Source of the DNA: Candidatus Poribacteria bacterium
Lineage (GTDB): Bacteria > Poribacteria > WGA-4E > WGA-3G
Strand: one strand, 5' to 3'
DNA: 64,000 bases
NCBI GenBank assembly: GCA_963664215.1
Contig: OY761015.1
The notes under the pieces are model-generated. The model was not told the DNA's origin. It did no database searches and saw nothing but the letters and a program-made list of their open reading frames with translations. Both the position numbers and the translations under genes were made by a program. Below are positions 17,182-43,647 of this stretch, piece after piece; position 1 is the first letter of the stretch; each line of letters begins with the position of its first letter.

Positions 17182-17192
17182 TCGACGTTCCT

Positions 17193-17924: not shown

Positions 17925-18011
17925 TATTTCGTTTTAAAGAAGATTATTATATCGGTAGAACCGAGGATTTTATCGTGAATGATGGTTATCATACCCACAC
18001 ATTAATGCCTT

Positions 18012-18092: not shown

Positions 18093-18094
18093 TG

Positions 18095-19261: not shown

Positions 19262-19266
19262 TAATT

Positions 19267-20871: not shown

Positions 20872-20985
20872 TGGGATAAATCCTTTCGTTAGATTTTCAG
20901 TGTGTAGGTTCGATTTCACTGCGTTCCACCCAACGCCTTTGTGAACCAGATGGGTAGGTGCGGTTTTCAACCGCACCAGATTGCT
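20872..20985. repeat. Second copy of the 114-bp inter-PhyH spacer with hairpin.
   Basis: Seen directly. Confidence 0.75.
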
Positions 20986-21720
20986 TCAATTTTCTTCAAT
21001 AACGCGGGGACGCCTACCGATGGATGGCGGCAACAACATCCGTTTCTGTTGTTCTGTCAACCCTTCATATTTACTGATGTCGTAATAGTGTTCCGACCAT
21101 GACGAGTGTCCCGGACTGTATTTATAGAGCAACGAACGGCGTTGGTGTTCCGCTGTCCACGGCATCGTCCCGTGGATGAGTGCCTCGGTGAAAAACAGAA
21201 CGTCACCGGCTTCCAGTGGCGGTTGAACGACATAGTGTGCCGGACGCTCAAAACGTCGCACATCCGTTGGGAGTTCCGTCGGAAAGTTACACTTGTGGCT
21301 TGCTGGGATACAGGCGAACCCACCCGCGCCCGCTGGAGCATCCGCCAGATTATAAGTCATCACGGACAACCCGTTCCGCATGTGTCCATCTCGGTATTTA
21401 TACCAGTGATCGCCGACGCTGCCACCGGCGCGTCCACCGTCCTCACCGCCGTGCAATCCACCACGTCCTTGCCCTTTTTCCATAAAGAGGGCATAATCGT
21501 GGTCGAGTCGGACATGCGGACCCAACATATCGATGAGATACGGCAGGATTTTCGGATGATCGATGAGTCGCTTGAACGGTTCACCCCAGAGACTCGGCGG
21601 TCCTTCGAGGTCGCCTTTGTCGATAATGGCGTTCATCTCAGCGACTTCATCGTCGGTCAGAACATTCTTTATGACGAGATAGCCCTCAAGATCTACCGCA
21701 AATTTTTCTTCACCAGTCAT
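20986..21720 (-). CDS. PhyH-family dioxygenase, copy 3 of 3.
   Basis: Same motifs; native 'MTGEEKFAVDLEGY' start. Confidence 0.8.
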   Translation of the reverse strand: MTGEEKFAVDLEGYLVIKNVLTDDEVAEMNAIIDKGDLEGPPSLWGEPFKRLIDHPKILPYLIDMLGPHVRLDHDYALFMEKGQGRGGLHGGEDGGRAGGSVGDHWYKYRDGHMRNGLSVMTYNLADAPAGAGGFACIPASHKCNFPTELPTDVRRFERPAHYVVQPPLEAGDVLFFTEALIHGTMPWTAEHQRRSLLYKYSPGHSSWSEHYYDISKYEGLTEQQKRMLLPPSIGRRPRVIEEN

Positions 21721-23222: not shown

Positions 23223-23498
23223 TTGGTGTACATCTGTTATCGTCGAAGAACCCAGTCCCTGCAAGGGTTCAGAGGCGTTTTTCTGTGAGCATCCGTTACG
23301 GAAAAAAACAATTTGGTGGAAAGTGTAACATTCTGCGTTTTTGAATTTCTACAGACTTCTAACATAACATACTATAAGTGTCGCATATATAAAGCAAAAA
23401 GTCAAGGGTGTGTAAAGTTTTTGGCATTCAACGTCCGAAGGTATTTTATGTCCTTTTAGGACGCCGGGGATACTCCGATTTTTGACCTGTTTCCTCTT

Positions 23499-23625
23499 CA
23501 ACCCCGTAGGGGTAACATCTCTGTAGAACGTGGTGAGACCCCATGAGTGAACCCCGTAGGGGTGACATCTCTGTAGAACGTGGTGAGACCCATCAGCGAA
23601 CCCCGTAGGGGTGACATCTACTTTG
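23499..23625. repeat. REP-like family B, three tandem copies (about 50-bp period): AACCCCGTAGGGGTrACATCTCTGTAGAACGTGGTGAGACCC, ending TTTGACAAAATAT.
   Basis: Seen directly. Shares a flanking 'gtgtaaagtttttggcattcaa' module (23403-23435) with 166-195. Confidence 0.8.
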
Positions 23626-23833
23626 ACAAAATATTTACACACCCAGAAGTCAAGGAAAATATTCAGTTTTTTGGCAGGGGCGTTTGAATTGTGAAACCGT
23701 CTGAATCTCGGATGACACGGATGCAGTAGATGATGCGGATTTTTGAGAGTGAAATGGAGCGTTGAGGCAACCTCACTAGCGAGGGGACTTCAGTCGAATT
23801 CACGTTATATCTGTTAAAGAGTGTTATACCGAA

Positions 23834-24067
23834 TTAGGTGGACTGGATTTTGGTGAGTGATAGCATTTTTGCGTGAGCGGACTCTAAAATCGAATCTCGA
23901 ATGAAGATGCTGGCATTTAGAATTTCAATACCTATGAGTTCACCGTTGCTGTTCAATTCGGCGGTGATATTGGGACTGAGTTCCAGACTCGCACTTTCTG
24001 GCTCCTCAGAAATCGCCAGATGCAATACATCCTCTTTCTCAAAATAGGTCATCTTTGTTTTATTCAA
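23834..24067 (-). CDS. DUF2283-family small protein, usual partner of DUF4258 in TA-like pairs.
   Basis: 'YFEKEDVLHLAISEEPESASLELSPNITAELNSNGELIGIEILNAS' matches the DUF2283 consensus (...GEIVGIEILNAS). Confidence 0.4.
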   Translation of the reverse strand: MNKTKMTYFEKEDVLHLAISEEPESASLELSPNITAELNSNGELIGIEILNASIFIRDSILESAHAKMLSLTKIQST

Positions 24068-24392: not shown

Positions 24393-26864
24393 TTATTCTT
24401 CCAGCAATTGCATGATTTCATCAAAACCGAAGTTCAGAATAAATTCTGCGTAATAACTGTCGAACAGATCTTTGAGGTAAGTACCTAATTCAACGTCAAA
24501 ATCGGTGTTGTTATAGAAGCTGGTATTGTCTTCTTCTCGCACCACTTGATATTTACGAGCCTTTGTAATTGAATATAGAAACAGGACATGAGAATATACA
24601 GAGGCGATATATCTCTGATTCGCTATTTCTAACTGTTCCTGACTAGCATTTCTGGTTTTCGCTCTGAAGTTCATTAGAACAGTACTATCCATGTTAATAT
24701 AAACGCTTTCTAACTTATCTTCTTTCACCATCGGGTACATTACAGTACCGAAGTCCATCGTCTCACTTGTCGCATTTTCGACTTGCTCCCAAGTTAATGC
24801 ACCATTTCTTTCCTGTCTTTCTTCTTGATAAACGAATTTCAGGTCGGGTAATCCTAAGGTTGGAATTTCCTTTTTTTCAGGTTTCGGTGAGGGCTGCGAG
24901 GGGGCTTTTGGTTCACTTACTTTCACCCAGAATATATCCTCAAATTCCCCTGTTGGATCTTCCAAGCTAACTTTGATTTTTGCTTCAGCCCCAACATTTA
25001 CTTCTTTTTTAGGATTAAGATGAATCTTGATCGTTCCGTCTTGTGGACTGCTTCTCCGAGCATTAAATACATCATCAATCCGGTCAACTTTACCCGGAGC
25101 ATCCCCACCTTCTGTTTCATTCGTTTTGAAGTCAAGAATGGCGATTTTCAACTCTCCGGGTTCTTCAATTCGGTTAAAATAATTGTTTTCGACATCCGTA
25201 TCAAAGAGAATCGTTTTCTCTCCACCAAATGGTATTATCACTACTTCTTTACCTTTTTTTCCTTGTCCACGTCGTTTGAAAAATGCAGGAAATCGTTGTG
25301 GATTAAAAGGATTCTGCTCCTTCTCCTTCTGTTTTTTCTTAGTTGAGTTGTTAGTGTTCCCTTTTTGCTTACCTTTGGGTGGTAAATCTAAATTTAAAGT
25401 TTGCTCCAATAACTTTAATAACTCTTCATTTCGCGAGAAATTCTGTGCGAAAGATTTGAGTAAGTCTTTCGCATCTTCACTTTCTACCGCTATTGAGTCT
25501 TTCCTTCGTTTCTGAATTTCCGTTAAACGCCCATCTTTCGCACCAAGTTTTCCTGCCAAAAATCTCCGCAAAATACGTGTTTCCTCTCCACTTTTCAATC
25601 TGTCCCGAGAAGCCATGAATAACTCTTTACGGAAGTCATAGTTCATATCCGTGCAATCGACATGGATAAGAAGATGTTCCTTGAGTAAGTTCAATTTTAG
25701 AGAGCGAGTTATGAATTCCGATGTGTAGTGTCCATGGACCTGTCCGTTGACTGAAAATAGGACAGACATATTATTTTTGAAGAACTCTCTGCGAATTGTT
25801 TCTTTAGTTTCCTTGACGGATCTGTCATCAATTTTCGTTTTGAACACATAGCAGGTCACTTTCATTTTACCAAAAAGGTCATCGTCAAAATCTTCGGAAA
25901 AGGACTCTTCAACGTACTTGTTATCTTCCTGTTCTAATCTGCGCTTTAATCCATATAAACCCCGTCGCAAAGAACTTTTAGGGTAGCGTTCCTCTTTTTC
26001 GATCGTATAGACTGGTAAGATGGGTTCAAACAGATATTCGTTAATGCTCTGATTCAAATCCCTTGAAATATCTGAGATTCCAGAGGGAAGATCATAAGAG
26101 TAGAGTTTGATAATTGTTCCTGCTGTGAAAGTCCTTTTATATAGTCCTAAATCCTGTTGATCTGCTTGAAAAGAAGGAATTTTTCCGCCGATCTTGAGGT
26201 ATTCGTACCATGTGTTCTTTTTCGTGCTTGCTTCTGCTTTGCTCAATGGATGTTCTCTGATTAATGTGAAACCGAATTCTCCAACGTTATCGTAACGTTT
26301 TGAGCCGATTAACTGGTATCGCTTTTTACCGCAGAACACAATGGCACCGCTGCCACCCATATTGTATCTACCTTGCACGAAGTGGATTTCGTTCTTATTC
26401 CCTCTCAATAACGAGAGGAAGGTGTTCTCGAATTCTTCAGGATGTTGTCCCTCGCCATCATCATAGATAATTAGGGAAGTTTTGCCCCGCGGTCCATCAG
26501 CAAGGATTTGGATGCTCTCAGCTTGTTGGTTTCTGAATGATGGCAGATCCCAATCTCTATGGTTTGGAAAGAAATTCGTTCTGGCTTCATCCATGGATTG
26601 GGGAGCTTGATTGGATTTGGGATCGATGCCTGCTTGCAAGCATTTCTTCATCAAAACAGCATCAATGGAGTTCGTAATTTTTTCAATCAGGGCGGCAATA
26701 GGACTTGATTGTTGATTTTCGATGACAGCGAAATAGTTTTCGTCTTCACCAATAGGAGACCAATTTTCAGATTTGAATATGTCAGAATGGACGTTGACGA
26801 TTTTATCAACGGTGTCTTCAGTTTGTGCGAAGTACAGTTTGTTGAAAAGTTCCTTCATATCCAT
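24393..26864 (-). CDS. GHKL/Bergerat-fold ATPase (HATPase_c-like) multidomain protein of 823 aa.
   Basis: N-box 'ALIEKITNSIDA', G1 'DDGEGQ', G2 'GRYNMGGSGA' in the first 200 aa. Long C-terminal region with a Lys-rich linker. Translationally coupled to the upstream PAPS-reductase gene (51-nt gap). Confidence 0.7.
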   Translation of the reverse strand: MDMKELFNKLYFAQTEDTVDKIVNVHSDIFKSENWSPIGEDENYFAVIENQQSSPIAALIEKITNSIDAVLMKKCLQAGIDPKSNQAPQSMDEARTNFFPNHRDWDLPSFRNQQAESIQILADGPRGKTSLIIYDDGEGQHPEEFENTFLSLLRGNKNEIHFVQGRYNMGGSGAIVFCGKKRYQLIGSKRYDNVGEFGFTLIREHPLSKAEASTKKNTWYEYLKIGGKIPSFQADQQDLGLYKRTFTAGTIIKLYSYDLPSGISDISRDLNQSINEYLFEPILPVYTIEKEERYPKSSLRRGLYGLKRRLEQEDNKYVEESFSEDFDDDLFGKMKVTCYVFKTKIDDRSVKETKETIRREFFKNNMSVLFSVNGQVHGHYTSEFITRSLKLNLLKEHLLIHVDCTDMNYDFRKELFMASRDRLKSGEETRILRRFLAGKLGAKDGRLTEIQKRRKDSIAVESEDAKDLLKSFAQNFSRNEELLKLLEQTLNLDLPPKGKQKGNTNNSTKKKQKEKEQNPFNPQRFPAFFKRRGQGKKGKEVVIIPFGGEKTILFDTDVENNYFNRIEEPGELKIAILDFKTNETEGGDAPGKVDRIDDVFNARRSSPQDGTIKIHLNPKKEVNVGAEAKIKVSLEDPTGEFEDIFWVKVSEPKAPSQPSPKPEKKEIPTLGLPDLKFVYQEERQERNGALTWEQVENATSETMDFGTVMYPMVKEDKLESVYINMDSTVLMNFRAKTRNASQEQLEIANQRYIASVYSHVLFLYSITKARKYQVVREEDNTSFYNNTDFDVELGTYLKDLFDSYYAEFILNFGFDEIMQLLEE

Positions 26865-26915: not shown

Positions 26916-27797
26916 TTACTTATGACAAATCAAACACGGCTCCTCATCATCCTCATCGTCGAGAACCTCGGTAAGGATCTCAGCGGGACTGAAGATTTGC
27001 ATTAGGGTTTGATTCGGTTTCGTCATTTTCTTATCCGCTATTGCTCTTTTCTTGTCTTCTATCGCCTTTTCGGTATTAGCCTTGATTTCTGTTACCCGTT
27101 CCGGTTTCGACAACTCCTCTAAAGTTTCACCCTGACACCATGTGAACAATTCATCTGTCTTTGAATGTGGATTGGGTTTCTCGTATTCCTTGGCGCGTTT
27201 AAACAGCTCTGGATGTTTCTCTAACAATCCGACCCACTCGGATTTGCGCTGGAAGAAACAGAAGTAACACCCGGAGCGCGTTCGCCAATTGTAATAGTCA
27301 GGTAAACCAACTCCACTCTCCTCCAGAATTCGATAGACATCCTCTTTCGTGATGCCGTCCTCTTTAAAAGGGTATTTGGGTTCGATATTGCGAAGGGTGG
27401 AGGTTTTTAATGGCTTATAGCCGATGCGCTCTTCGTCTGCACGGATGGCAATGTAATGATACGCTTTATCTTCGCCAACGTATTCTTCAAAAGGTCTTAT
27501 TTTTAGGTTAACAGTGCACCAGCGAACTTGAGACGATGGCAGCAAACCCCCATAGAGCGTCAACCAATGGTCGAAATCGCGGTTACTGTTGGGATCGGAA
27601 TCCATGTTGAGGCGTATAATCGGTTTGCCGAGGAATACCTCTAATCGATCCAAAAACGCATAGGTCTCTGGCAATTCCTTACCTGTGTCAGAAAAGAAGT
27701 ATTCCATCTCGGGCACTTTGTCCCGCATGTAAACCGCAAGCGCAGAACTGTCTTTGCCTCCAGAGAGGCCGAGAAGATGACGAACTTTATGTTCCAT
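26916..27797 (-). CDS. PAPS reductase-family (PP-loop) ATP pyrophosphatase, SspD/DndC-like.
   Basis: PP-loop 'LGLSGGKDSSALAVYM' near the N-terminus. Conserved Cys pairs including a C-terminal 'CLICHK'. 293 aa. Confidence 0.8.
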   Translation of the reverse strand: MEHKVRHLLGLSGGKDSSALAVYMRDKVPEMEYFFSDTGKELPETYAFLDRLEVFLGKPIIRLNMDSDPNSNRDFDHWLTLYGGLLPSSQVRWCTVNLKIRPFEEYVGEDKAYHYIAIRADEERIGYKPLKTSTLRNIEPKYPFKEDGITKEDVYRILEESGVGLPDYYNWRTRSGCYFCFFQRKSEWVGLLEKHPELFKRAKEYEKPNPHSKTDELFTWCQGETLEELSKPERVTEIKANTEKAIEDKKRAIADKKMTKPNQTLMQIFSPAEILTEVLDDEDDEEPCLICHK

Positions 27798-27863
27798 GTT
27801 TCCCTCTGAGGTAGTTGTTTTGTTACTCTACAATCCCAAGTGTACCATATACTTCCAAAAATA

Positions 27864-30800
27864 TCAAGACGTTTCCTGCTTGTCCTTCAGCATCAATTTC
27901 TGTGAGATTCGTGCTAAGACTGCCAGACGGAATTCAAGGTTTCCATCCGTATCAATTTCGTTAGAAGTTTTCTCAATTGCGCGTTCCAATTTATCTGCTT
28001 GTTCCTGGGCAGTTGAAGGCAAAATGACAACTTGTTCCTGTTCGGCGTGTTTCGGCCTCGTAACGCCGATACGAATTGGTTCACCTGCTGATGATTCAGT
28101 GTGATCCCATTTTTCGTAGGACACTGCTTCAAAATGCCGAAATTTCCTTGCGAATTGAGAAAGATTACTTTCAAATTGTGCTTTATCCAAGTCTATCCAT
28201 GATGCAGGTGGTTTTTTGGTAAGATAGGTTGCTATTGCCTCGAGCCAGCTGGTAAAATCATGTCCACCATTACAGATTTGAATCAAAAACCCTTTAAAAT
28301 CAGTTTCTATTGTTATTTCTAGCAAAGGCTCAGCTCTAGTGACCAATTCTGTTTGGAGTACTTCTTTCTTTGGTGTCAAATCGAAGGCTTCTACGAGCAA
28401 TTGCTCGATAAAGTTCAGCAGCACTTCGTAAGCCTGCTCTAACTCGGACAGTGTATCTTGCAGTGTGGTGAAGAAATCTGAAACAACCTTTACATCTGTT
28501 GCTGTTTCTGTACCAAAGGCAGAGAAACCAAGTGCTTCAGGCAATTGATTAAAAAGGAGTTCGTCAGGCTCACGCGCATTCAGAACGACTTCCCTTACAT
28601 TTTTTGACGCGGCACTCAATTCTTGTGTTGTTAGTACATACTTTGGAAGTTGTGCTATAGAGTGTATAACCGGCGTGATGGCTGTTAACAAATCAGAGTT
28701 TTCGGCTGTCATCGGTTGATCGAGCATCTCCAAAAATTGTGCTAACAGATCCGCGCGAATACCGACTATCCGAAAACATTTCAGTTCAAATTGTTGAGGG
28801 ACTTTGAGTAATCTTTCAAAAATTGGCATTGACCAGGTTGGTATAAAAGATCCGTTTTCGTAAAGAGCGATTTCGGTTTTGTGATATAGCATCGCGGCAC
28901 ACAAAAGAATAGGCAGTGGACCATTTCGCACGCCGAATGGCGATGCCATCAGACGTTTATAGAGTGCTACAATAGGTTGTCGTTTCCCTTCACACTCAGT
29001 AAGAAACTCCTCGATTGCTTTCCATGTGTGCTCCATTCTGTTCTTATCACTTGTTTTGGGTGGGTAAAATCCCCATACACCTGAGGCTTCGCGATGTATT
29101 CCGGTCTTCCATAAGAGAGAACGATAGATACTCATTTGGGGGGGATAGCCGGTGATACCAAGGTCTTCCTTCTCCTCGTTTTCAAGCATCGCTTGGATTA
29201 ACTTCTTCCGTCCGGTTGTTACAATCCCGGAGATTTTCCGTCGGTTAATCAGTTCGTTCCGAATAGTAGGTGTTTTGTTGTAAACCTCATCGCAAATTTC
29301 TGAGAGGTACGCGTTTCTTGCACGTTGGGAGTTAATGTCTACCGGTTGTCCCTTGTGGTACCATATACAAGCATTTTTGCTGTCTTTGCCAAAGATTGCC
29401 GTTAGCCTGTCGGATACTTCTTTTTCTGCTTGTGTCTGTTGCACTGAGAGTTCAAGTCTTGCCACTGGATCTCCTTCTAATTCAGGTGTATTGTCGGAAA
29501 TCCAATGTAGATGGGTGAGTTGAGTAACAGCATCTTGTAGAGCACCTATAGTCTGAGGGATTGCAATTAACACCTCTTGAAGGGAAACAAGGGCATTCTC
29601 ACTTGCCTTTTCGACTAATTCGTTAACTTCATGTTTATTTGCTGGAAGGGCATAGAGTATAAGTCCATCTGCATCACCGAGTGGTGTTCTGATATCTGCA
29701 TCAAAATTTTCGAGATCGGTGTACCGAACGGCAAAATGACGAAGGGTGCCAGTTTCAAATAGATGTTGTCGGGCAACGAGGGGACGTATTGACAGATAGC
29801 GCGACAAATTTGTGGCGAGATTGGTTTTTGTATGAACACTTCCTTCTGCCTCACGGAGTTTTGCTTCAATGTCAATATCGCTCCCTTTCCAAAGCGCGTA
29901 AGCCTTATTATAGAGACGGTAGATAGCGATTGAACGATCTTTCAAAGTGTCGAGTGCTGTCTCAAATTCATGGGCGAATCCTTTTGTTTTATCATCTAAT
30001 GCATAACGGAGCATCGACTCTGAAGCTTTCAGATTCGGAATTGATTCGCTAACGATGCCGAGTATTCCGATCGTTTTAATCAGTTTAGCTGACAAGGTGG
30101 ACGAGTCGGACAATCGACCTATTGCCGATTCAATTTCTGCCCACTTCTTGCTATTATGTGAGATATACAGCCGATTCCCCATATTAGTCTTGAGGTAATC
30201 GTACAGGTCGGTGATTGAAAACAAGGGTAATGTATCTCTGTTATAACGCTGATTAAAAAGAAAATCTTGGAGTCCATGCGGTTCGCTTGAACTGAGGAAG
30301 GCAAAGAGGGAACGTTCATTCTGTCCGAATCGCCGGAAAATCGAATCTATAACAAGTACAACGGTCGGATGGAGTGGCAGGCAGTTTCTCAGGAGTTCGC
30401 TAAATTCGTCCGCGGTAAGTTGGCTCGGTTTGAGTTCTAATTCGGTGGGTAAAGATAAATTTCTTTCCTCATTTCCTGAGGTTTTCTCAATAGCAGAACC
30501 AATCAAGCGAAGAACCTGTTCAGTGGGTTCCACAAAGGCTATGTCCTCAAACCGTCCTTGGACCTTTGCCCATTCCTCCTGTTGCGATTTGGCTGCTTTG
30601 CTTGCATATTGTTCAAAGGCTTGATGGAGAATTGTCAGCAAGAATAGTGGAGTCTGGTCACTTCGCGTAGCGAATTCGGCAAGGGTTTGTAACACAAAAA
30701 TATCGCCTTGTACAGGATCTTGTGCAGCGTACTCAAGGAACTTGCCCAGCTCATCAATCACTAATAATAAACCCTGTCCACCGTTTTCCCCGATAGTCCT

Positions 30801-31361
30801 TGTTGCTAATTCAAAAAGAGCAGTAATTTCAGATGCCTGAGGAGGTATGCCGTTCGCTGCTGTTCTCAATAGTTTTCTGATCTTCTGTTGAAGTGAGCCA
30901 ATAGGCAGAAATTCAGAGGCTTTAAGTCCCTGTTCTAAACCACGCAGAAGGGCAATCGGGAGGGGAGCGCGCTCTCCAGAGATAAGCACAGGACAAAATC
31001 CGGATAGCGACCAATTTCCGTTCTGCTTTGTATCCATAAATTGTTCATATAGCGCGATATCTCCATCTTTTAATACTTTTAAGGCCTGTCGAGTTGTCGC
31101 GGCCTCAGGATCCCCAAGAAGTTTCGCTGCGAAAAGTGCGAATGCTGATTTTCCCGACCCGTAGGGACCGGTGAGCGACCATGCTTTCGATGTTGTCTCA
31201 TTTTCAAGGGTCGCAACGATACGCGATAGCATCTCGCGCGCTGTAACAGTCAAAATATATCCATCTAAGGCGTTCTCTGTATAGAAATCACGTTCCAGAT
31301 GAACTGAACGCCTAAAACGACCCTTAATCTGGAAAAGTTTTGACAAAGGGGTATTATCCAT
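27864..31361 (-). CDS. Giant P-loop NTPase (1165 aa), SspC/BrxC-like.
   Basis: Walker A 'LTGPYGSGKSAFALFAAKLL', Walker B 'LLLVIDELGKF' in the N-terminal 250 aa. Long helical C-terminal region. Overlaps the upstream DUF4007 gene by 8 nt. Confidence 0.7.
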   Translation of the reverse strand: MDNTPLSKLFQIKGRFRRSVHLERDFYTENALDGYILTVTAREMLSRIVATLENETTSKAWSLTGPYGSGKSAFALFAAKLLGDPEAATTRQALKVLKDGDIALYEQFMDTKQNGNWSLSGFCPVLISGERAPLPIALLRGLEQGLKASEFLPIGSLQQKIRKLLRTAANGIPPQASEITALFELATRTIGENGGQGLLLVIDELGKFLEYAAQDPVQGDIFVLQTLAEFATRSDQTPLFLLTILHQAFEQYASKAAKSQQEEWAKVQGRFEDIAFVEPTEQVLRLIGSAIEKTSGNEERNLSLPTELELKPSQLTADEFSELLRNCLPLHPTVVLVIDSIFRRFGQNERSLFAFLSSSEPHGLQDFLFNQRYNRDTLPLFSITDLYDYLKTNMGNRLYISHNSKKWAEIESAIGRLSDSSTLSAKLIKTIGILGIVSESIPNLKASESMLRYALDDKTKGFAHEFETALDTLKDRSIAIYRLYNKAYALWKGSDIDIEAKLREAEGSVHTKTNLATNLSRYLSIRPLVARQHLFETGTLRHFAVRYTDLENFDADIRTPLGDADGLILYALPANKHEVNELVEKASENALVSLQEVLIAIPQTIGALQDAVTQLTHLHWISDNTPELEGDPVARLELSVQQTQAEKEVSDRLTAIFGKDSKNACIWYHKGQPVDINSQRARNAYLSEICDEVYNKTPTIRNELINRRKISGIVTTGRKKLIQAMLENEEKEDLGITGYPPQMSIYRSLLWKTGIHREASGVWGFYPPKTSDKNRMEHTWKAIEEFLTECEGKRQPIVALYKRLMASPFGVRNGPLPILLCAAMLYHKTEIALYENGSFIPTWSMPIFERLLKVPQQFELKCFRIVGIRADLLAQFLEMLDQPMTAENSDLLTAITPVIHSIAQLPKYVLTTQELSAASKNVREVVLNAREPDELLFNQLPEALGFSAFGTETATDVKVVSDFFTTLQDTLSELEQAYEVLLNFIEQLLVEAFDLTPKKEVLQTELVTRAEPLLEITIETDFKGFLIQICNGGHDFTSWLEAIATYLTKKPPASWIDLDKAQFESNLSQFARKFRHFEAVSYEKWDHTESSAGEPIRIGVTRPKHAEQEQVVILPSTAQEQADKLERAIEKTSNEIDTDGNLEFRLAVLARISQKLMLKDKQETS

Positions 31362-32292
31362 AATGCCTTTCTAAGAGTTTCATCAGGTTTAGATCGTTCC
31401 GTCGATAAACCTGTTTCAAACCTGCGGTTTCATCGTATTGTAGTGCTTCATTGGTAAGTTGCGCAAGATTTTCAAGATATGCTATCATTGTGTCTTCGTC
31501 TAACCTGAAGATTCGTCCAGGACTTAAGGGGGCGTACATCAGGTCTGAAAATGGTAGGGCATTCCTTTCAAAAAAACGGAGATCCCAAAATGCGACTAGC
31601 GTTGCTGTAAAAACCTCAGCTGGTAGTGTTCCTTTCTCACCTCGTTGGAATTCATACCCGTTACCTTCTGGTAATTCGGCGATTAGATTAAGCTCAACGA
31701 GTGGAGAGTCAAAACTCTCCTCAATTACGGCAGCGGTATGACGTGACTGGCAGTACGTTCGGATAAAGCAGTTGACATCGCGTTGAAGTGTATTATCAGA
31801 GATAGGTCTCATAGATGCTTTCTGTTGTTGTGCCCATTTGTATACCTCTTCCATGAATGTCGTTGGAACGAATTGATTTTTTCTCAAAACGTTAAATGCC
31901 CAATACCACGTGGTTGCCTGATTAATATTGGTCGCAATCTGCCAATGAATCAACCACAAAGTGGCAGGATCTTCAAGGTATGGATCAAACCCTTTTTTAT
32001 CGTTAAAAATGGCTTTGCCGAGTTTAGTCGGAACAAGCTTTCTACGCTGGTCGGGATCCACCTTAATAAGTCTAGCAACGGTACACCAATGTCGAATGGA
32101 GCTTACCATGTTTTTTCCAACGCCTAAAGTAACGAAAGCGTCTTCCGATGAAAAGACGGTCGGATTTTCTGTTACGGCATCAACACCCTTTTTCAGCCAT
32201 GTATACCGAAACGGAAAAGTCTGGTGCCCCGAGAAAGAAGGATTTGTCAACTGTGGTGAGATTGTGTGTTCAGTTATTAGGAAATTTTCCAT
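31354..32292 (-). CDS. DUF4007-family protein, SspB-like.
   Basis: N-terminal 'FSGHQTFPFRYTWLKKGVDAV' matches the DUF4007 conserved block (HxTFxxRYxWLxK). 312 aa. First gene of the four-gene operon. Confidence 0.55.
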   Translation of the reverse strand: MENFLITEHTISPQLTNPSFSGHQTFPFRYTWLKKGVDAVTENPTVFSSEDAFVTLGVGKNMVSSIRHWCTVARLIKVDPDQRRKLVPTKLGKAIFNDKKGFDPYLEDPATLWLIHWQIATNINQATTWYWAFNVLRKNQFVPTTFMEEVYKWAQQQKASMRPISDNTLQRDVNCFIRTYCQSRHTAAVIEESFDSPLVELNLIAELPEGNGYEFQRGEKGTLPAEVFTATLVAFWDLRFFERNALPFSDLMYAPLSPGRIFRLDEDTMIAYLENLAQLTNEALQYDETAGLKQVYRRNDLNLMKLLERHYG

Positions 32293-32343
32293 ATAACTTA
32301 TTATACTTTATGTGTGGAAGAGAAGTCAACACGCATTGAACAT

Positions 32344-33688
32344 CAGGGCTATCCAGTTTTCCGCTTTCTCTCTATATGAGTTTAACTGCGCGTTTAGGTT
32401 TTGAAGCGAAAAATCGGAGCGTTTCAGCGATTTTCGTATGTCCGTTGAAGCGTAAGACAGACAGAACGGTGTTGCGTAAGGCAGCCATGACTTCTGGAAT
32501 ACTGCCGGTTCGTGCTTGTGAAGCATCCTCACCGAGGACGGTATCTCGGACCCAATGGACTTTGTTTTCTATCGTCCAGTGTCCTCGTCGGAGTTTCAGC
32601 AAAGCTTCTGCGGAGGCTTTCTGAGGCGTTAGACTTGTGATGCCATACTGCGTCTGAGAGGAGATCTCTGCTGTTTTGGTATTGACTCGCTGAGACTGGT
32701 ATTGATAGACTTGTGCGAGTCCTGGCCAGTTGATGTAATCTGTCAAGAGTGTGCTTGCTGTGAGGGTGCGTGTGGTGGTGAACCCATGTGATGTTTCGAC
32801 CTGTGTGTGTGTATTGAGGTGTGCTGCTTCTTGGGTGTGGAGGTTTTCAAATCGGCGTGCTTCAACCTCTGTGGGGTCTGTCTGCGAGAGGGGTTCAAAG
32901 AGTTGAGAAATATCGTCATACATCTGTTTGTGGTTCTCTTTGACGGGCATTGCATAATCTGCTTTGTGTTGGATAATGTCTTTGCAAAAGGTTCTCTGAG
33001 TCAAGAGTGCATCAGTTGTGATGACTTTGCCGAGGACATCAAAGGTTTTCAAGAGTTTTGTTGCGATGGGAATCTCGTTGGTCTTTCCACTGACGGAACA
33101 TTGTGCCAAGGGGATTCCTACCTCGTGGCAGACAGCGGCGAGTAAATGTGTCCGGTATCCGGTCTCTGGGTCTTCGGAGCCCCGTAGTTCTTTGCCATCG
33201 ATGGCAACTGCGTGTAAATCTTGTGTTTTCAAAACTTGAAGATCTTCAAGTTTTGAAAACACCCATTTCGTGAGGCAGGCTTCTAAACTGGCGACATCCA
33301 GACGCTTCAAGAGATTATGAAGGGTCGTCGCACATGGGGACTTTCGAGACCTGAAACCTAATGCTTTTGTCAGTTCAGGGTGGTCCCGAGCCCAGGTCGC
33401 TATAGAAGTATAACCTTTATGATTCGCCATCAAACCGATGACGATCAAGGCGAGGATAGAGACTAAAGGATGACGTTTGCCTTTTTTATGGCGTGGATCT
33501 GGAACTTCTGCTAATATATCAAGCAAGTGGCAAGAGGGTGTTCTTGTCATGATTCACCTACAAAAAGTGATATTTTTTACGGTGAAGTATAGCAGAAGTC
33601 GCGTGAAACGCCACGCGACTTCTGCTTTTCTGAAGATATTAACATCTGTGAAAAAATACAGAAAAAAACCGAAAACTGGATAGCCCTG
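32344..33688 (-). mobile_element. ISAs1-family insertion sequence (1345 bp) with 18-21-bp terminal inverted repeats, flanked by a 10-bp direct repeat CATTGAACAT.
   Basis: IR 'CAGGGCTATCCAGTTTTC' at 32344-32361 and its reverse complement at 33671-33688. Direct repeat at 32334-32343 and 33689-33698. Single transposase ORF inside. Confidence 0.8.
32372..33550 (-). CDS. ISAs1-family DDE transposase (H-repeat-associated protein type).
   Basis: N-terminal 'LLDILAEVPDPRHKKGKRHPLVSILALIVIGLMANHKGYTSIATW' (DDE_Tnp_1_assoc), 'HAVAIDGKELRGS', 'TIENKVHWVRDTVLGEDASQ' DDE region. Confidence 0.85.
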   Translation of the reverse strand: MTRTPSCHLLDILAEVPDPRHKKGKRHPLVSILALIVIGLMANHKGYTSIATWARDHPELTKALGFRSRKSPCATTLHNLLKRLDVASLEACLTKWVFSKLEDLQVLKTQDLHAVAIDGKELRGSEDPETGYRTHLLAAVCHEVGIPLAQCSVSGKTNEIPIATKLLKTFDVLGKVITTDALLTQRTFCKDIIQHKADYAMPVKENHKQMYDDISQLFEPLSQTDPTEVEARRFENLHTQEAAHLNTHTQVETSHGFTTTRTLTASTLLTDYINWPGLAQVYQYQSQRVNTKTAEISSQTQYGITSLTPQKASAEALLKLRRGHWTIENKVHWVRDTVLGEDASQARTGSIPEVMAALRNTVLSVLRFNGHTKIAETLRFFASKPKRAVKLI

Positions 33689-34105
33689 CATTGAACATAT
33701 GCGAAGTGTCAGGGGCATTGTTTAAAAATCGTTTTCAATGAATACAAGTATCTGCTGTGAATATGCGGCGAAATAAGATGCTATTGACGCGGTAAACTTG
33801 TATTTCAAGACCCAATATCAAGAGGGCAGTATTTCGTAGCACCCCCATTACTGTTGCGACCACGCCCCTCTGAACTTAAGGACTTTAGATCGAAAACTAT
33901 ATACCCTTGGATTATTAATCTTTTTGTTGAGATTGTTTGGCAAATTTGGTATACTATTACCCTTGATTGTAGTAGGCCGTGATTAAGAAGTTTCCCCGTA
34001 CTTCTGCAATACTAATAGTTAAATAGATCCTCCAAATGGTGCGTTGATATTTCCTTTGTCTGATTAAGTTTCTTCATAGTTACGCCCTGACAGACAGGTT
34101 ACCAG

Positions 34106-35203
34106 ATGCCCAAATATGAAGCTGGAATCACAGAGATTAACACGCTTGTTCGCCGCCTCGGTTATGTTTCCGCAATTCTACGATTGCTTGAGCATAGAAC
34201 GCTAAGTGAATCTGTACTCTATACTCAACTTGAAAAATGGAGTCTCAATCATGAGCCAGATTTGATGGATTACGCGAATCAGCAAGGATACATTAAGGCG
34301 ACGCGCGGACAAGCTGCTCCAAGACGATACACTAATTTCGCTGTTTCGTTGGGAATTATAGGGCGAATCGCTGGCGCGTACCGTGTGACTCGATTTGGAA
34401 AGGCATTGCTTCCTTTCCTATGCCGAATTCCTGATCAAAATCCGTTTGAACTGACGAACGCGGAGTGCTGTGCCTATCTGTATTGGCTTCTGCTGAAGGA
34501 TAGCGATCGACTTCTTACAGTTATTCACATGTTAGTTGAACAAGAGACTTGCTCTCTTTCCGATTTGCAAAGTGCTTTCCCCGCGTTTTATCTTCAGCAA
34601 TTGCAAGCCCGGATGCTAACATCGGAAAAACATGTTGCTCGTGACATCTTGGCGGAACGGAACCGTGTGGCACATTGGAAAGAAGAATCAGGGCGTTCCA
34701 TGGAAAATGTTGTGCCACCACGCATTCATTGGTTGGCAGACCTCGGCTTGGTCTCAGTTGAGAATCATGGAAGGAGACGGTCTGGATTGACAGAAATGGG
34801 TGCCCGATTTTCTCAGTCTCTTCCAAAGATTCAAGAGATGCCGACTTTTCACACAAGTTCAAAGTGGTTGCGGACGCAATTCTTTGGCATTGCTGGACAG
34901 ATATTTATGGGCACAATTGATCGACGCTGGACGGAAATACATGATTTAGAAAAAAAAGAACTGCTTTACAAACTCACTTTTCAGGCTTTTGAAACGCTTC
35001 GGAGTACACCGACCCCGAAGATTTCTTTATATCCAGCACTCATTTATATGGCACTTCTTCTCACAACGGATAACGGAATAGCGGTGAATTTGGAGGAACT
35101 CCAGGCAGATTTAGATATGTTTTCCAAAGATCCTGATACACGCTATGCGGTCCGATTTTCCCATCGCGAGAATGAGTCCTACCTTATTTTTCTGCCTACC
35201 TAA
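34106..35203 (+). CDS. Hypothetical protein (365 aa), first gene of a three-gene operon.
   Basis: ORF with no recognisable motif. Overlaps the next gene in the operon. Confidence 0.5.
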   Translation: MPKYEAGITEINTLVRRLGYVSAILRLLEHRTLSESVLYTQLEKWSLNHEPDLMDYANQQGYIKATRGQAAPRRYTNFAVSLGIIGRIAGAYRVTRFGKALLPFLCRIPDQNPFELTNAECCAYLYWLLLKDSDRLLTVIHMLVEQETCSLSDLQSAFPAFYLQQLQARMLTSEKHVARDILAERNRVAHWKEESGRSMENVVPPRIHWLADLGLVSVENHGRRRSGLTEMGARFSQSLPKIQEMPTFHTSSKWLRTQFFGIAGQIFMGTIDRRWTEIHDLEKKELLYKLTFQAFETLRSTPTPKISLYPALIYMALLLTTDNGIAVNLEELQADLDMFSKDPDTRYAVRFSHRENESYLIFLPT

Positions 35204-35213
35204 CCGAAAACTT

Positions 35214-35843
35214 ATGGATATTCTAATTCCTGATACATCGTCCCTTATCAACATACATGAGGTTTATGTAGGGCGATCTCATATCATTGATGTTTTAAAT
35301 CAATTGTTCACTGTGCAAGTCTCGCGAGAGATACCGCATGAAATCAGGCGACGCAGGAATAAATTAGGAGACTACGACAAACAGATGTTGCAATTTGTGC
35401 GTCAAGCAAGGCGATATTTTCCGCATGAACAAGATTATGAAGATCTGCTTTTCAATCGATTTTCAACATCTAGCGACCCGACTCGCAATCGTGGGGAGCG
35501 TTATAATTGCGCGCTGGCATTTTATCTGGTTCGGAAACGGAGGATGGGGCAAGTTATTATACTGACAGATGATAGGAAGGCAAGGCGAGGTTTGATGGAT
35601 TGGTACGAGAATCGCTTCGCAGCGACAAGGACTTGGTCATCTTTGGAATTACTGTTGCATATCTATCTCGTTATGTTTCCAAAGTGGCCATACAATCGGG
35701 CTGAGTTGGCTTTACAACAGGTAAACCCTCACCTTGCTGGAACCCAAGTGGAGATGACGAAGCGTCTTCGTGAGTATCGCCGTTATCTCGAGCGGTTACA
35801 TGCTATGCTGAAAGCCTTGCCATCTGTAAGAAAAACGAGGTGA
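35214..35843 (+). CDS. PIN-domain-like protein, putative nuclease.
   Basis: N-terminal 'MDILIPDTSSLINI' (PIN motif 1, Asp) and 'VIILTDDRKA' (T-D-D motif). Start at ATG 35214. 4-nt gap to the next gene. Confidence 0.45.
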   Translation: MDILIPDTSSLINIHEVYVGRSHIIDVLNQLFTVQVSREIPHEIRRRRNKLGDYDKQMLQFVRQARRYFPHEQDYEDLLFNRFSTSSDPTRNRGERYNCALAFYLVRKRRMGQVIILTDDRKARRGLMDWYENRFAATRTWSSLELLLHIYLVMFPKWPYNRAELALQQVNPHLAGTQVEMTKRLREYRRYLERLHAMLKALPSVRKTR

Positions 35844-35846
35844 AAC

Positions 35847-37022
35847 ATGACATACTCCATTGATTGGAATTTAGCCGGTTTACGAGAAAATCCCTTTACA
35901 ATCAGTCCTCCAACTGATCCCAAGCAGACAACTTGGGCAGGCCTAAAAGAACTCAAAGGCGAATTTAAGAATGTCTTCCGAGAAACCAAAGCATCAGCAC
36001 CAACGCAGGTAGTATTATGTCGAGGAGCTATTGGGGCAGGTAAAACACATGCTTCACTTTTCTTTAGTTCTGACCAAAATATGCCTGAGGCATCACCGAG
36101 TGTTCAAAGTCTAGAAGTTCTAAGGGTTCAAACCCCTACTGAAACTGGGAATCCAGCGAGGGATTTTTATCTCGATGTCATAGATCAGATTGGACTTGAA
36201 CGTATAGCGGAATCGGTGAAAGAAGGTGTGGAATCTGTTGGACGGGATGTAGTAGAGCGAAATCTTCGTCAAACGGTGGTGAGTGGTGACTTCGTGAATG
36301 CGCTACTTAAGTTGTTTGAGGCTTCACCTATTTCTCCGGGGGCTGGCTTGCCTCTAAGTGCCTACTTCCTGGGCAAATGCACGACTACGGAATTGCGAAA
36401 ACTTGGCTTAAATCGAAACATTGAGAAAACACAAGATTACTTTCGAGTGTTAGCAGGCGTTTTTCACTGCCTTACGGGGTTATCTGAATCCTCTGATGTA
36501 ACTCAGCACAATCGATTCTGTCTATGGATAGATGAAATGGAGAATTTCATCTATTTTACACCGCCACAATACCGTCCCTTCGGACAGGGATTGCGTGAAC
36601 TCGTAGATCGGCTTCCCTACTTTTTCACACTTTTGATGAATTTTACGCTGACCGCGCCAGAGGAATATGAAGAAATTGAATTGATTCTGGGAGGCTATCT
36701 CACCGACCGGATTACCCGACAGATTTTCTTTCATGAAGTGAAAGATCAAGAAGAGTTGCTGCAATATGTCCGCGAACTTCTCTCTCACTACAGAACCGAA
36801 GAAAAACCCAAAACACCTTATTTTCCGTTTACAGAGGAGGGACTCCGGGCACTTCTGTCTAATTTGCAACATGGAACACCGAGAGACGTGAATAAGCGGT
36901 GTCGTAATGCCCTGATGCGAGCGTTTGAAAAAGGGATTTTTGAGAAAGGAAAGGGCTCCGTAATTACGCCTGAATTTGTACAGGAGATGACGCAGGAAGA
37001 ATTAGATAAAGAGTTTGGATAA
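35847..37022 (+). CDS. P-loop NTPase (ORC/Cdc6- or DUF2791/BrxD-like AAA).
   Basis: Walker A 'LCRGAIGAGKTHASLFF', Walker B-like 'FCLWIDEMENF'. 391 aa. Confidence 0.6.
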   Translation: MTYSIDWNLAGLRENPFTISPPTDPKQTTWAGLKELKGEFKNVFRETKASAPTQVVLCRGAIGAGKTHASLFFSSDQNMPEASPSVQSLEVLRVQTPTETGNPARDFYLDVIDQIGLERIAESVKEGVESVGRDVVERNLRQTVVSGDFVNALLKLFEASPISPGAGLPLSAYFLGKCTTTELRKLGLNRNIEKTQDYFRVLAGVFHCLTGLSESSDVTQHNRFCLWIDEMENFIYFTPPQYRPFGQGLRELVDRLPYFFTLLMNFTLTAPEEYEEIELILGGYLTDRITRQIFFHEVKDQEELLQYVRELLSHYRTEEKPKTPYFPFTEEGLRALLSNLQHGTPRDVNKRCRNALMRAFEKGIFEKGKGSVITPEFVQEMTQEELDKEFG

Positions 37023-37709
37023 GCGAGATCTCAATTCCCTTAAAGTGATTTATTACACATCGGAGGTAGGATAACCGCACTTATATGCTGGTTTGTATCC
37101 AGTACAACTTGCATTACGGAGATAACTTACTCCTTTTACAGACTTCCCCCGCGCGCCCCTCAGCAATTGCCTGTTCAATATCTGCCTGTGCTTCTTCTTC
37201 ACTCACTGCTGGCACTTTTTCCATATTCTATCTAATTACGATACGGTAATTCTATTTTTACATTCGTTTTTTTACGGAGAAGAGGCATATTGCGTCTTGG
37301 CAACCCACGGCCCGCCTATGCTGGTGAAAACCTCCGTGAAGCCTCCGTGAAAGTGAGGAGATTTCGATGCATTTATCGGAGGATGGACGATTATCTGTCT
37401 ACTGCCAAAAGAGTATTATGACTGCTATTGGATCCGTGTGAAAATTTCATAGCAATTTTCATAGCAGCTTTCACAGTACCCTTTGGTGAAAACTGCCTGA
37501 AACCCAATACACGTCAGGGTTTATCGCCTTTCACGACACCTGTTGATTTTTCGGGTTTGCTATGAAAACTGTGAAAATTCGGTTTCTAAGGGCACTGGCT
37601 TCGTCTAAGAAACGTGAGATCCGATAATTGCTTAAATCTAAATGCTTCTGTCCGACTTACAGGGGCATTTAGTTTTCCGAAATTATTGAGTTTCGGTCAT
37701 TGGAGGACC

Positions 37710-37752
37710 GCGCCCCTCCTCTGTAGGAGGGAACTCCGATTCCCGACTTTCC
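37710..37752. repeat. REP-like family D copy (CCTCCT-ctgt-AGGAGG hairpin plus CTCCGATTCCCGACT).
   Basis: Matches 23069-23120. Confidence 0.7.
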
Positions 37753-37891
37753 GCAGAAATTCGACAAAAAACTTAAAACTAAATGGTCCTGGTCCGAATT
37801 ACAGGGAAGATTGCGAAAGATGTAGAGGTGTGTTATACTGGAGACGAAACATTTCCGATACTTTTTTATTTTAGCGAGCGTTTACCCTACC

Positions 37892-42024: not shown

Positions 42025-43647
42025 TTATGGCTGCGATGGAACGGATTGAAGGACCGGAATAACGTAACAGTGAACCATCCGACCGTCAATTACATCCGTT
42101 TCCGCGCGGGGTTCCGGATTTTCGCGGTAATCAAACACGACATAGTAACCTTCAATCGCGCCTTCCGATGTGAGGTATGTGACAAGTTGGTGCTTGCCCG
42201 CTTGGTAATTTCGTTCGCCGCGCCATACCTTCGTTTCGACGATATAGGTTTGCCCGCTGTGCGAAATGATGAGATCGGCTCTGCCCCTGCCGGTTGGGAC
42301 TTCAAGATACATGGCAGCACCAACGACTTTCACAAACTCGTCGAGATAGGCGAAGAGGAGGTATTGCCCTACGAATTCTTGGGGTATGTCTGGGACTTGG
42401 AGGATTCTGAATCCGACACGTGTGATGAAGTCTTTAAAATTTTCAATGAGCCGCTGCATCTGTAGCTGCTCGGTCGGTGCGATATATTCTGAAAAGTCGA
42501 TTGGACCGTCTTCAGGGAAGTATTCGTCCTCAAGTCCATTTATAAGGGGTTTAAGTGCTTGGATAATGCAATGGAGGTAGATAGGATTGAGAATTTGACA
42601 CATTCCATCTTGCCCCTTTGTGAGGATACCATAAGTAGCGAGTTCGCTGATGGTTTCATTGTGGAGGGTAAAATTATAGCTGCTCCCATAGAAAACAATG
42701 TGCATGAGCATCCTTTCAAAGCGTGGGTCTCTGCGGACATTGGTAATGAGATGTTCAATGTTAGTGTTTCTCTCCTCGATGAGTCGTGCGTGCGCTTGTG
42801 AAAAGTGGGCTATCTCAATCGTTTCGCTTTTGGGGATGCCGAGTTCCTCGGTGAGAATCTGCGCGAACCTATTGACGAGGAACGGTTGCCCTGCTGTCTG
42901 TTTATGGATCGTTTCAAGGACTTTGGGTACGAATTGCTGCCCGACCTCATCTGTGTACTGACCGAGGAGTTCACGGACCTGTTCTAAAGTGAAGTTTGGG
43001 AGTGTGAACTCATCCTGTATGTTGAAGGGTGAGATGGATCGATCGTAGTTGAGTTGTGTGATGTCTTTAACCCCTACAATACCGACACTATACGGAGAGC
43101 GGACTTCGCGACCGGTGAGATATATCCGGCGAAGTGAACGAAGAAATCCATTGATGGCATCCTGTGGAATACCGTCGAATTCGTCGATGATAAAGACGAC
43201 CCGTTGGTTTTCGGCGAAGGTGGTAAACCCTTCAAAAAATTCACGCATCGAAATGTGGTTCGTTATCTGTGCAGTCGTCAGAAAGGTGTCCAGTTCTTGG
43301 GAAGGGTGCTCACCGCGTTCCCGGAAGATCTTCCGAATCTCTTTGACAATTTCTTTACACAACGAATGGTAAAAATCGGGGGGTGTTATATCTTCGTATT
43401 CCTCGAAGTTGAGTTGTATTGGAAAGTAGTCTGTTCCTTCAGCTGCAAGTGCCTTGAGCGCGTCTTGAAAGAACGTGGTTTTACCGGTCTGTCGGGGTGC
43501 GAACAAGACGATATATCGTCCCTGCTTAACGCGGTTGATGAAATCGGAAAGCTCCTCACGCCGCGCCACGACGTAATTATCTGTGGAATTGACGGGACCT
43601 TGCGTTCCAAATCGTCTCATGTTTTTCTCCTGCTGTCTTAGGTGCAA
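42025..43647 (-). CDS. AAA-ATPase-like domain plus C-terminal PD-(D/E)xK nuclease-like domain protein.
   Basis: 'RRFGTQGPVNSTDNYVVARREE...IVLFAPRQTGKTTFF' (Walker A). C-terminal 'GRGRADLIISHSGQTYIVETKVW' (PD-D/ExK). Paralog of 61273-62901. Confidence 0.75.
   Translation of the reverse strand: MHLRQQEKNMRRFGTQGPVNSTDNYVVARREELSDFINRVKQGRYIVLFAPRQTGKTTFFQDALKALAAEGTDYFPIQLNFEEYEDITPPDFYHSLCKEIVKEIRKIFRERGEHPSQELDTFLTTAQITNHISMREFFEGFTTFAENQRVVFIIDEFDGIPQDAINGFLRSLRRIYLTGREVRSPYSVGIVGVKDITQLNYDRSISPFNIQDEFTLPNFTLEQVRELLGQYTDEVGQQFVPKVLETIHKQTAGQPFLVNRFAQILTEELGIPKSETIEIAHFSQAHARLIEERNTNIEHLITNVRRDPRFERMLMHIVFYGSSYNFTLHNETISELATYGILTKGQDGMCQILNPIYLHCIIQALKPLINGLEDEYFPEDGPIDFSEYIAPTEQLQMQRLIENFKDFITRVGFRILQVPDIPQEFVGQYLLFAYLDEFVKVVGAAMYLEVPTGRGRADLIISHSGQTYIVETKVWRGERNYQAGKHQLVTYLTSEGAIEGYYVVFDYRENPEPRAETDVIDGRMVHCYVIPVLQSVPSQP

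Follow-up and report, generated by a model that had tools for sequence, protein, structure and literature searches.

A three-gene module with a PIN-like candidate nuclease accompanies DNA phosphorothioation genes across bacterial phyla

Three tightly packed genes and their products

The stretch of DNA analysed here, hereafter the window, comprises 64,000 nucleotides (nt) of contig OY761015.1 from a Candidatus Poribacteria bacterium (assembly GCA_963664215.1). According to its list of open reading frames (ORFs), it carries three tightly packed genes on the plus strand at 34106-37022, which we name A, B and C in 5' to 3' order. Their products are a predicted DNA-binding protein, a PIN-like candidate nuclease and a predicted AAA+ ATPase, and they lie beside sspB, sspC and sspD, which encode a single-strand DNA phosphorothioation (PT) module. 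Altogether, our results identify the trio as an undescribed, widely conserved partner module of PT-based defence. The genes and their putative promoter are the following (lengths in amino acids, aa).

33927-33955, plus strand: promoter-like site of the trio (TTGAGA-17-TATACT with TG), located about 150 nt before A; consensus match only
34106-35203, plus strand: gene A, 365 aa; predicted tandem winged-helix DNA-binding protein with about three winged helix-turn-helix (wHTH)-like modules; no known family
35214-35843, plus strand: gene B, 209 aa; putative PIN-like nuclease domain at about residues 1-150 plus a C-terminal helical tail
35847-37022, plus strand: gene C, 391 aa; predicted AAA+ ATPase (AAA_22/TniB/ORC-Cdc6 type); N-terminal motif L..NPF...WAG

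For B, the ORF list also offers a longer frame of 232 aa (35145-35843). The likely start is 35214, giving 209 aa, because conservation in the family begins at MDILIPDTS (alignments of 54, then 43 members). With this start A and B are 10 nt apart, against a 59-nt overlap with the start at 35145; the gap between B and C is 3 nt, and a GAGGTGA ribosome-binding site for C lies within the end of B. The original prediction, made from the sequence alone, had described three same-strand genes that overlap or are separated by 4 nt. The common strand and the tight packing hold; the B-C gap is 3 nt rather than 4, and A and B overlap only with the 35145 start. The motifs that it quoted, 'ILIPDTSSLINI' and 'ILTDDRK' in B and 'GAIGAGKTH' in C, are all present in the window proteins. 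Upstream of A, the promoter-like block is invariant across four aligned loci.

A, B and C are genuine genes, since each of them has more than 100 homologues (clusters at 90% identity) with conservation over the full length. None matched a PADLOC model at E<=1, and NCBIfam gave no match of note; in Pfam only C matched, to AAA_22 and below threshold. These are three protein families without an entry in Pfam, NCBIfam or PADLOC. Searches against PDB chains, with shallow and deep profiles and by sequence as well as by profile, gave nothing significant for any of the three. Moreover, no name or description of the trio was found in the searchable literature, the coverage of which is incomplete, including two comparative-genomic reappraisals of Dnd and BREX systems and a study of PT gene neighbourhoods in the gut.

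The product of A had been described as lacking a recognisable domain, and at the level of sequence profiles it indeed has no match in Pfam, PADLOC or NCBIfam, DUF4007 included. Its AlphaFold2 model (predicted local distance difference test score, pLDDT, of 70.5) is confident for residues 115-365 and unreliable in the N-terminal third. The model consists of tandem winged-helix modules, and A is predicted to be a multi-winged-helix DNA-binding protein. Foldseek returned weak winged-helix matches only for this model (Cdt1 winged helix, RPC62, MukE, PadR and the ORC winged-helix domain), all at E>0.1. The conserved residues are PPR-x-xW-x-DLG (204-214), D132 and R350/R354/E357/Y359, this last group being located on the last predicted wing. 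One wHTH segment shows local similarity to SspB (hhalign E 0.0017, probability 15%), and a local wHTH match to Sso10a was also obtained. A as a divergent DUF4007/SspB paralogue was considered and is unsupported outside that one segment.

In B, D7 never varies, and E43, G94-E95 and D119 are retained in 90% or more of the 43 sequences compared, which span at least 10 phyla; the acidic quartet D7/E43/E95/D119 has the spacing of PIN domains. D119 is replaced by N in three Dnd-linked Poribacteria copies (from L020, L021 and L023, as we number the collected loci described below), which keep E120. The Pfam PIN_4 profile matched 21 of 54 B members below threshold (best score 19.5 bits, cut-off 21.9), and the best alignment joins B residues 5-123 to profile positions 2-118 of 132. 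The orthologue from L015 matched both PF01850 (E 0.028) and PIN_4, and that from L013 matched the PIN part of the PADLOC model CARF_PIN (E 1.3e-4); B of the window itself gave no match to the Pfam PIN clan. As far as sequence methods show, B is a PIN-like nuclease: the original prediction, which had relied on two motifs, gains from the near-invariant acidic quartet, seen in the family alignment, and from the near-threshold PIN_4 matches over the full length of the domain. The AlphaFold2 model of B is poor (pLDDT 44.6, from a shallow alignment); its beta-alpha alternation alone fits the PIN fold. A local match to an RNase H-like motif (E about 0.2) provides a weaker alternative to PIN. Ten divergent orthologues of A and B gave no match to SspF, SspG or SspH and no significant PADLOC match. 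A toxin-antitoxin pair of the VapBC type was rejected, B being 209-290 aa long versus about 130 aa for the toxin, always lying beside A and/or C, and having no small upstream partner.

Among 42 sequences of C, Walker A (G63-x-G65-K66-T67), Walker B (D229-E230), E232 and R288 are invariant, and the sensor-1-like N265 and R346, within TPR-x-IN, are conserved in at least 90%. Judging from their positions, R288 would be the arginine finger, N265 sensor 1 and R346 sensor 2. The N-terminal L..NPF...WAG motif is specific to the C family; clustering this family at 50% identity gives 390 clusters for E<=1e-3 and 90 for the stricter E<=1e-30. Of 45 members, 29 were matched by AAA_22 of Pfam and 5 by TniB, in every case below threshold (for C, 19.8 bits against an AAA_22 cut-off of 27); the sub-threshold similarity to TniB and TnsC is confined to the generic AAA+ core, and a Cdc6 match (E 0.015) covers the P-loop only. 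Weak PADLOC matches to DolB, BrxD, IetA and mad8 were found in distant members, BrxD matching 14 of 95 of them (best E 2.6e-6) and not C of the window. From sequence comparison, C can be assigned to the Walker A/B AAA+ ATPases of the AAA_22/TniB/Cdc6 type, with weak BrxD similarity in the family, in line with the earlier description of a P-loop nucleoside triphosphatase (GAIGAGKTH) of ORC/Cdc6 or BrxD size. Two more specific identities were tried and discarded. BrxD (DUF2791) of BREX does not fit, given the lack of a BrxD match in the window protein and a context of Ssp and Dnd genes, not BREX (PglZ occurs only in L010, downstream), and a homologue of the SspC ATPase domain does not fit either, the similarity being just generic around Walker B.

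Linkage to phosphorothioation writer genes

We collected loci through homologues of C, 50 of them non-redundant, and annotated them with custom hidden Markov models made in this analysis. Thirty-eight loci were contributed by a scan of one genome per species with a narrower C alignment as query; they belong to Poribacteria, Gammaproteobacteria, Chloroflexota, Acidobacteriota, Cyanobacteria, Desulfobacterales, many Bacteroidota, Chloroherpetonaceae, Myxococcota, Verrucomicrobiae and Melioribacteraceae, and come from named genomes of at least 10 phyla. A, B and C occur together in 45 of the 50 loci, and B with C in 48. At least one PT-writer gene is present in the flanks of 44 of 50, and the full sspBCD set in 26. 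The usual layout is a single operon, sspB-sspC-sspD-A-B-C, as in L015, one of the loci in which genes abut or overlap. A divergent layout, sspD-C-B facing away from A-B-C, is found in the window and in four other Poribacteria loci (L001, L003, L004 and L005), and a convergent one in L007; L010 has a single operon sspA-B-C-D-A-B-C, L011 and L017 have the trio embedded as sspD-A-B-C-sspB, and L013 reads sspB-C-A-A-B-C-GHKL. Gene order also varies within the trio, A-B-C or, in Bacteroidota, A-C-B, with the content kept. Finally, Ssp genes are replaced in L012, L018 and L049 by Dnd-type writers (PAPS_reduct together with Sp-DndD, and an SMC-like DndD).

We consider it almost certain that the trio is functionally coupled to PT systems, because this linkage is far tighter than co-residence in a defence island would give and survives the shuffling of gene order. 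The original prediction had placed the trio next to a defence-like module. It does adjoin one, and the relation goes beyond adjacency, since the trio is a conserved operon partner of SspBCD, and sometimes of DndCD, in at least 10 phyla. Likewise, calling it an uncharacterised anti-phage or abortive-infection module was too generic: an undescribed, conserved trio it is, and one tied to PT. Neighbourhood conservation had been proposed as a check, with housekeeping operons as the context that would weaken the idea of defence; in the collected loci the trio is kept beside PT-writer genes and was not found in housekeeping operons. Loss of the four PIN acidic residues in B had been named as the other weakening finding, and the family alignment shows the quartet to be conserved.

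The association was also approached from the other side, with 80 metagenomic loci chosen on the SspD proteins closest to that of E. coli, 52 of which extend at least 4 kb downstream of sspD. SspFGH is present in 14 of these 52. For this E. coli-like SspD clade, in which the trio was found in 0 of 52, we reject the idea that it generally supplies the partner that orphan sspBCD loci lack. The trio marks particular sspBCD lineages, and the link is non-reciprocal. In a crude SspD tree, the nearest neighbour is itself trio-linked for 25 of 30 trio-linked sequences, yet the trio-linked sequences are spread over about 10 clades, which suggests modular exchange. No trio was found on viral contigs or plasmids.

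Several individual loci deserve mention. In the Bacteroidota loci with A-C-B order (L045-L054), A has about 190 extra N-terminal residues and B is lengthened to about 280 aa. Candidatus Poribacteria loci L012, L018 and L020-L023 hold a second, paralogous module (C about 40% identical) beside Dnd-type genes; L012 is without A, and two genes with HNH_2 and a ScoMcrA-type sulfur-binding domain lie nearby. In L010, positions 13073-21128 downstream of sspABCD-ABC encode a truncated second DUF4007 protein (171 aa), a domainless protein of 1557 aa and PglZ, which suggests a BREX type-4-like extension.

Surroundings of the trio in the window

The modification system and the insertion sequence (IS) noticed earlier beside the trio are both there, the former being sspBCD (26916-32292, minus strand). 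The neighbouring features, all on the minus strand, are listed below.

24393-26864, minus strand: GHKL (HATPase_c_3) protein, 823 aa, downstream of sspD; Pfam HATPase_c_3 25.4 bits, cut-off 25
26916-27797, minus strand: sspD, PAPS-reductase-like PT writer, 293 aa; PADLOC SspD E 4e-113
27864-31361, minus strand: sspC, BrxC-like ATPase, 1165 aa; PADLOC SspC E=0, 1087 bits
31354-32292, minus strand: sspB (DUF4007), divergent from the trio; Pfam DUF4007 E 1.2e-90, PADLOC SspB E 2e-102
32300-32329, minus strand: promoter-like site for sspB, TTGACT-18-TATAAT, just inside the IS insertion point; consensus match only
32344-33688, minus strand: IS element between the promoter-like sites of sspB and of the trio; transposase ORF 32372-33550, Pfam DDE_Tnp_1_assoc and DDE_Tnp_1

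The GHKL protein, whose GHKL domain is N-terminal, gave no PADLOC match. In 14 of the 50 loci a protein of this type, of about 820 aa, neighbours the trio or Ssp genes, and it is a frequent, non-obligatory fourth partner. Its conservation is unusually high: in L013-L016 it is 52-57% identical, while A, B and C are there only 24-33% identical. This protein might belong to the module as its fourth component, or else be a second effector.

The ends of the IS, read from the sequence, are inverted repeats CAGGGCTATCCAGTTTTC, and a 10-bp target duplication CATTGAACAT occupies 32334-32343 and 33689-33698; judging from the ends typical of the ISAs1 family, we take the element to be ISAs1-like. It is a recent, lineage-specific insertion, because it is missing from the orthologous Poribacteria loci L001, L004 and L005. 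The element sits between the back-to-back promoter-like sites of sspB and of the trio, both of which look intact, and the sspB block is conserved in the IS-free loci. The insertion may decouple any shared regulation of sspB and the trio.

The block at about 23-38 kb has a G+C content of 0.39-0.46, versus about 0.49-0.55 in the flanks, and the Poribacteria locus lies at a fixed chromosomal site beside FGE-sulfatase and MutY genes. Between C and the FGE-sulfatase gene, 870 nt (37023-37891) hold no convincing gene. In L001 the same interval is 184 nt long, and in L004 and L005 it spans about 1.1-1.2 kb, which points to a junction that varies between loci at the island's right edge; scans of this interval and of the island gave no Rfam or tRNA match. 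At the left edge of the low-G+C island, 23349-23642 (minus strand) contains two nearby copies of a short repeat, 'GSHHVLQRC(H/Y)PYGV' in overlapping ORF translations, and a 77-aa ORF at 23834-24067 presumably resembles a small protein of the DUF2283 type. Three tandem paralogues of 286, 279 and 244 aa, about 70-80% alike by eye, are encoded further left (19267-21720, minus strand); two of these ORF calls open with near-identical leader peptides (MRLETAPTRLVHKGVGWNAVKPNL...), probably repeated upstream DNA that is not coding. On the other side, a few kb from the island, a 540-aa protein (42025-43647, minus strand) combines a P-loop (PRQTGKTT) with a C-terminal GRADLII...VETKVW stretch resembling a PD-(D/E)xK nuclease and is a putative ATPase-nuclease fusion.

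Possible roles and relation to known systems

We then asked what the trio contributes to the PT systems that it accompanies. We propose that it is the restriction or effector arm of a subset of them, with A as reader, C as switch or matchmaker and B as the cutting enzyme, a reading to which we give a probability of about 0.55. It is favoured because the trio combines a predicted nuclease whose catalytic-type residues are intact, an intact AAA+ ATPase and a predicted DNA-binding protein, and because most trio loci contain no other conserved candidate effector, the GHKL protein being present in 14 of 50 only. Moreover, the literature expects further restriction partners for sspBCD: in a 2021 survey, 83.9% of sspBCD loci had no known restriction partner and more partners were predicted (PMC8092258).

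According to this proposal, the multi-winged-helix protein A would read DNA and its modification state, by analogy with the multi-wHTH proteins SspB and DndG. C, as an ORC/Cdc6-TniB-like AAA+ ATPase, would assemble on DNA in an ATP-dependent manner and act as a switch or matchmaker, in the way that TnsC and TniB stand between a target selector and an effector. It would then license B, as a metal-dependent nuclease of the PIN-like kind, to cleave invading nucleic acid that lacks the modification, and host DNA would be protected by the PT marks placed by SspBCD. The sequences demonstrate the genes themselves, their conserved residues of catalytic type and, across phyla, their linkage to PT-writer genes at the level of the operon; we infer that the three proteins form a complex, sense PT, act on a DNA or RNA substrate and have anti-phage activity.

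Several observations weigh against a role as effector arm, a role that is deduced from gene content and linkage. The PIN assignment of B is made of sub-threshold profile matches and conserved residues, with a model of pLDDT 44.6, and among PIN nucleases restriction DNases are less common than RNases or structure-specific nucleases. The kinship of A to SspB and DndG consists of a single local wHTH match (E 0.0017, probability 15%). The association with PT was ascertained through C, and the trio is absent from all 52 E. coli-like SspD loci. In L026 canonical SspFGH is encoded directly beside the trio, and L042 holds a decayed SspFGH copy; L055 has a distant trio with a TGT (DpdA-like) gene and no PT genes, and L044 has only B-C, beside a NACHT gene and without a writer. 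Three exception loci are short contigs. Last, an accessory role in modification would explain the linkage to PT just as well.

Two of these loci can be described further. L026 (positions 3-13214) comes from a cultured cyanobacterium, Pseudanabaena sp. 'Roaring Creek' (NZ_LIRE01000019.1), and carries sspF-sspG-sspH upstream of A-B-C-sspA on one strand; no sspBCD was seen in the flanks covered. In L055 (1915-8997), B and A point one way and C the other, together with genes for a 690-aa TGT-family protein, a small PLD nuclease, a DUF87/HerA-like ATPase and an integrase, and the TGT-family gene suggests 7-deazaguanine DNA modification.

Because SspFGH and the trio coexist in L026, the trio is no simple substitute for SspFGH. 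This co-occurrence, together with the TGT context, argues against simple replacement and fits either an accessory role or a portable cassette. We put forward, tentatively and as somewhat less probable than an even chance, that the trio is a portable cassette of reader, AAA+ matchmaker and PIN nuclease that serves SspBCD, DndCD-type and possibly DpdA-like TGT writers, and that can be stacked with SspFGH or with the GHKL ATPase. If so, it would add a third class to the PT-coupled restriction modules, with the first PIN-like nuclease among them.

Alternatively, though we regard this as unlikely, the trio could assist the modification reaction instead of serving as a restriction arm. It would choose or scan targets, load the writer complex or recycle it, or process the nicks made at PT insertion, B being then a FEN-like structure-specific PIN nuclease. 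Its embedding between sspD and sspB in L011 and L017 speaks for such a role, as do its pairing with different writers (Ssp, Dnd-type and a TGT-like gene), its presence in L026 where a restriction arm already exists, and the way in which the A/C pair mirrors the reader and ATPase pair SspB/SspC. However, SspBCD with IscS of Vibrio or E. coli modifies DNA without such genes (PMC8092258). Furthermore, sspB, sspC and sspD are complete in trio loci, the trio is missing from the 52 sspBCD loci in the E. coli-like clade, and B-C pairs exist without A, once without any writer (L044). Were the accessory role correct, the minimal set of Ssp genes would change for those lineages.

The trio might also be an autonomous defence or abortive-infection system, made of an ATPase, a PIN toxin and a DNA-binding regulator, that travels with PT genes without mechanistic coupling. 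The exceptions L044 and L055, which lack Ssp genes, the spread over about 10 separate SspD clades with the modular exchange that it suggests, the integrases and other defence genes nearby and the weak resemblance of C to ATPases of stand-alone systems (DolB, IetA and BrxD) are all in keeping with such a system. Yet a PT-writer gene lies in the flanks of 44 of 50 loci, usually within one operon whose ORFs abut or overlap, over at least 10 phyla and in several gene orders, and copies are absent from the viral contigs and plasmids searched, so that we judge autonomy improbable. As for a mobility or target-selection module, in which a mobile element with ssp genes as cargo would own the trio as its TniB/TnsC-like ATPase and DNA-binding selector, the sub-threshold TniB and TnsC similarity of C and the IS, integrases or recombinases near some loci leave it scarcely credible against the lack of a consistently adjacent transposase, a window IS that is recent, lineage-specific and absent from orthologous loci, the fixed site of the Poribacteria locus beside FGE-sulfatase and MutY genes, and a TniB similarity restricted to the generic AAA+ core.

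The question matters since most sspBCD loci have no known restriction partner and the way in which PT status is read is poorly understood. It can be addressed directly by cloning, as the carriers include cultured Bacteroidota and a cyanobacterium; among the cultured carriers are Siphonobacter aquaeclarae DSM 21668, Rufibacter roseolus SYSU D00344, Algoriphagus oliviformis H41, Confluentibacter sediminis DSL-48 and Pseudanabaena sp. 'Roaring Creek'. If the trio is indeed an effector arm, it would represent a third and compact PT-coupled restriction module (2.9 kb versus 8.7 kb for SspFGH), broaden the known roles of PIN-like nucleases and supply models that defence-finder tools now lack.

How, then, does the trio compare with systems already described? 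Considered singly, its proteins recall known families and differ from them in several respects. Like PIN nucleases (PIN_4, PF13638; PIN, PF01850; VapC-type toxins), B has four acidic residues at typical spacing, a D-T-S/N start motif and a T-D-D/E motif, and PIN_4 aligns to it over nearly the full profile. It differs in that every match is under the Pfam gathering score, in that its third acidic residue is Glu and in its extra C-terminal helical region of about 60-130 aa, and, unlike VapC-type toxins, it comes without an antitoxin-like partner. C shares with AAA_22, TniB-TnsC and ORC-Cdc6 proteins Walker A, Walker B, sensor 1, the arginine-finger-like R288 and a sensor-2-like TPR, is similar in size to BrxD and Cdc6 and, like TniB-TnsC, ORC-Cdc6 and BrxD, probably acts on DNA with a selector protein; it is set apart by the weak or sub-threshold level of all these matches and by the L..NPF...WAG motif particular to its family. 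A recalls the multi-HTH readers of the SspB, DndG, BrxA and FokI type in its several predicted winged-helix modules, and its gene adjoins that of an AAA+ ATPase, an arrangement shared with SspB and SspC; only one of its wHTH segments, however, aligns with SspB, and DUF4007 does not match.

As a whole, the trio resembles SspFGH (Wang et al. 2021, PMC8092258) in being three genes that adjoin sspBCD, in including one protein with Walker A and in its presumed action against non-PT DNA. The sizes are however very different, about 605, 510 and 1794 aa for canonical SspF, SspG and SspH (Table S2 of PMC8092258 and the E. coli C10 locus) versus 365, 209 and 391 aa for A, B and C, and SspH has an FtsK/SpoIIIE-like C-terminal domain whereas the trio gave no FtsK_SpoIIIE match. 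These sizes, and the lack of any match to the corresponding PADLOC models (PDLC02793-02806), rule out that the trio is SspFGH; the same models recognised SspF, SspG and SspH in the E. coli C10 locus (L006), used as a positive control, with E values of 5e-220, 3e-203 and 0. SspE is rejected too, A, B, C and the 823-aa neighbour having no DUF262 or HNH/DUF1524 match in Pfam or PADLOC.

The closest parallel in logic is DndFGH, which also joins a multi-wHTH reader (DndG), nucleoside triphosphatases and a nuclease and is tied to PT writers; indeed, some trio copies lie beside DndC/DndD-type genes. Comparison of sequences revealed no relation between the two, apart from one weak DndF match among 95 C-family members, and the trio proteins are much smaller. 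Moreover, a 2024 reappraisal assigns a restriction-endonuclease (REase) domain to the DndFGH system (PMC10853773), whereas the candidate nuclease of the trio is PIN-like.

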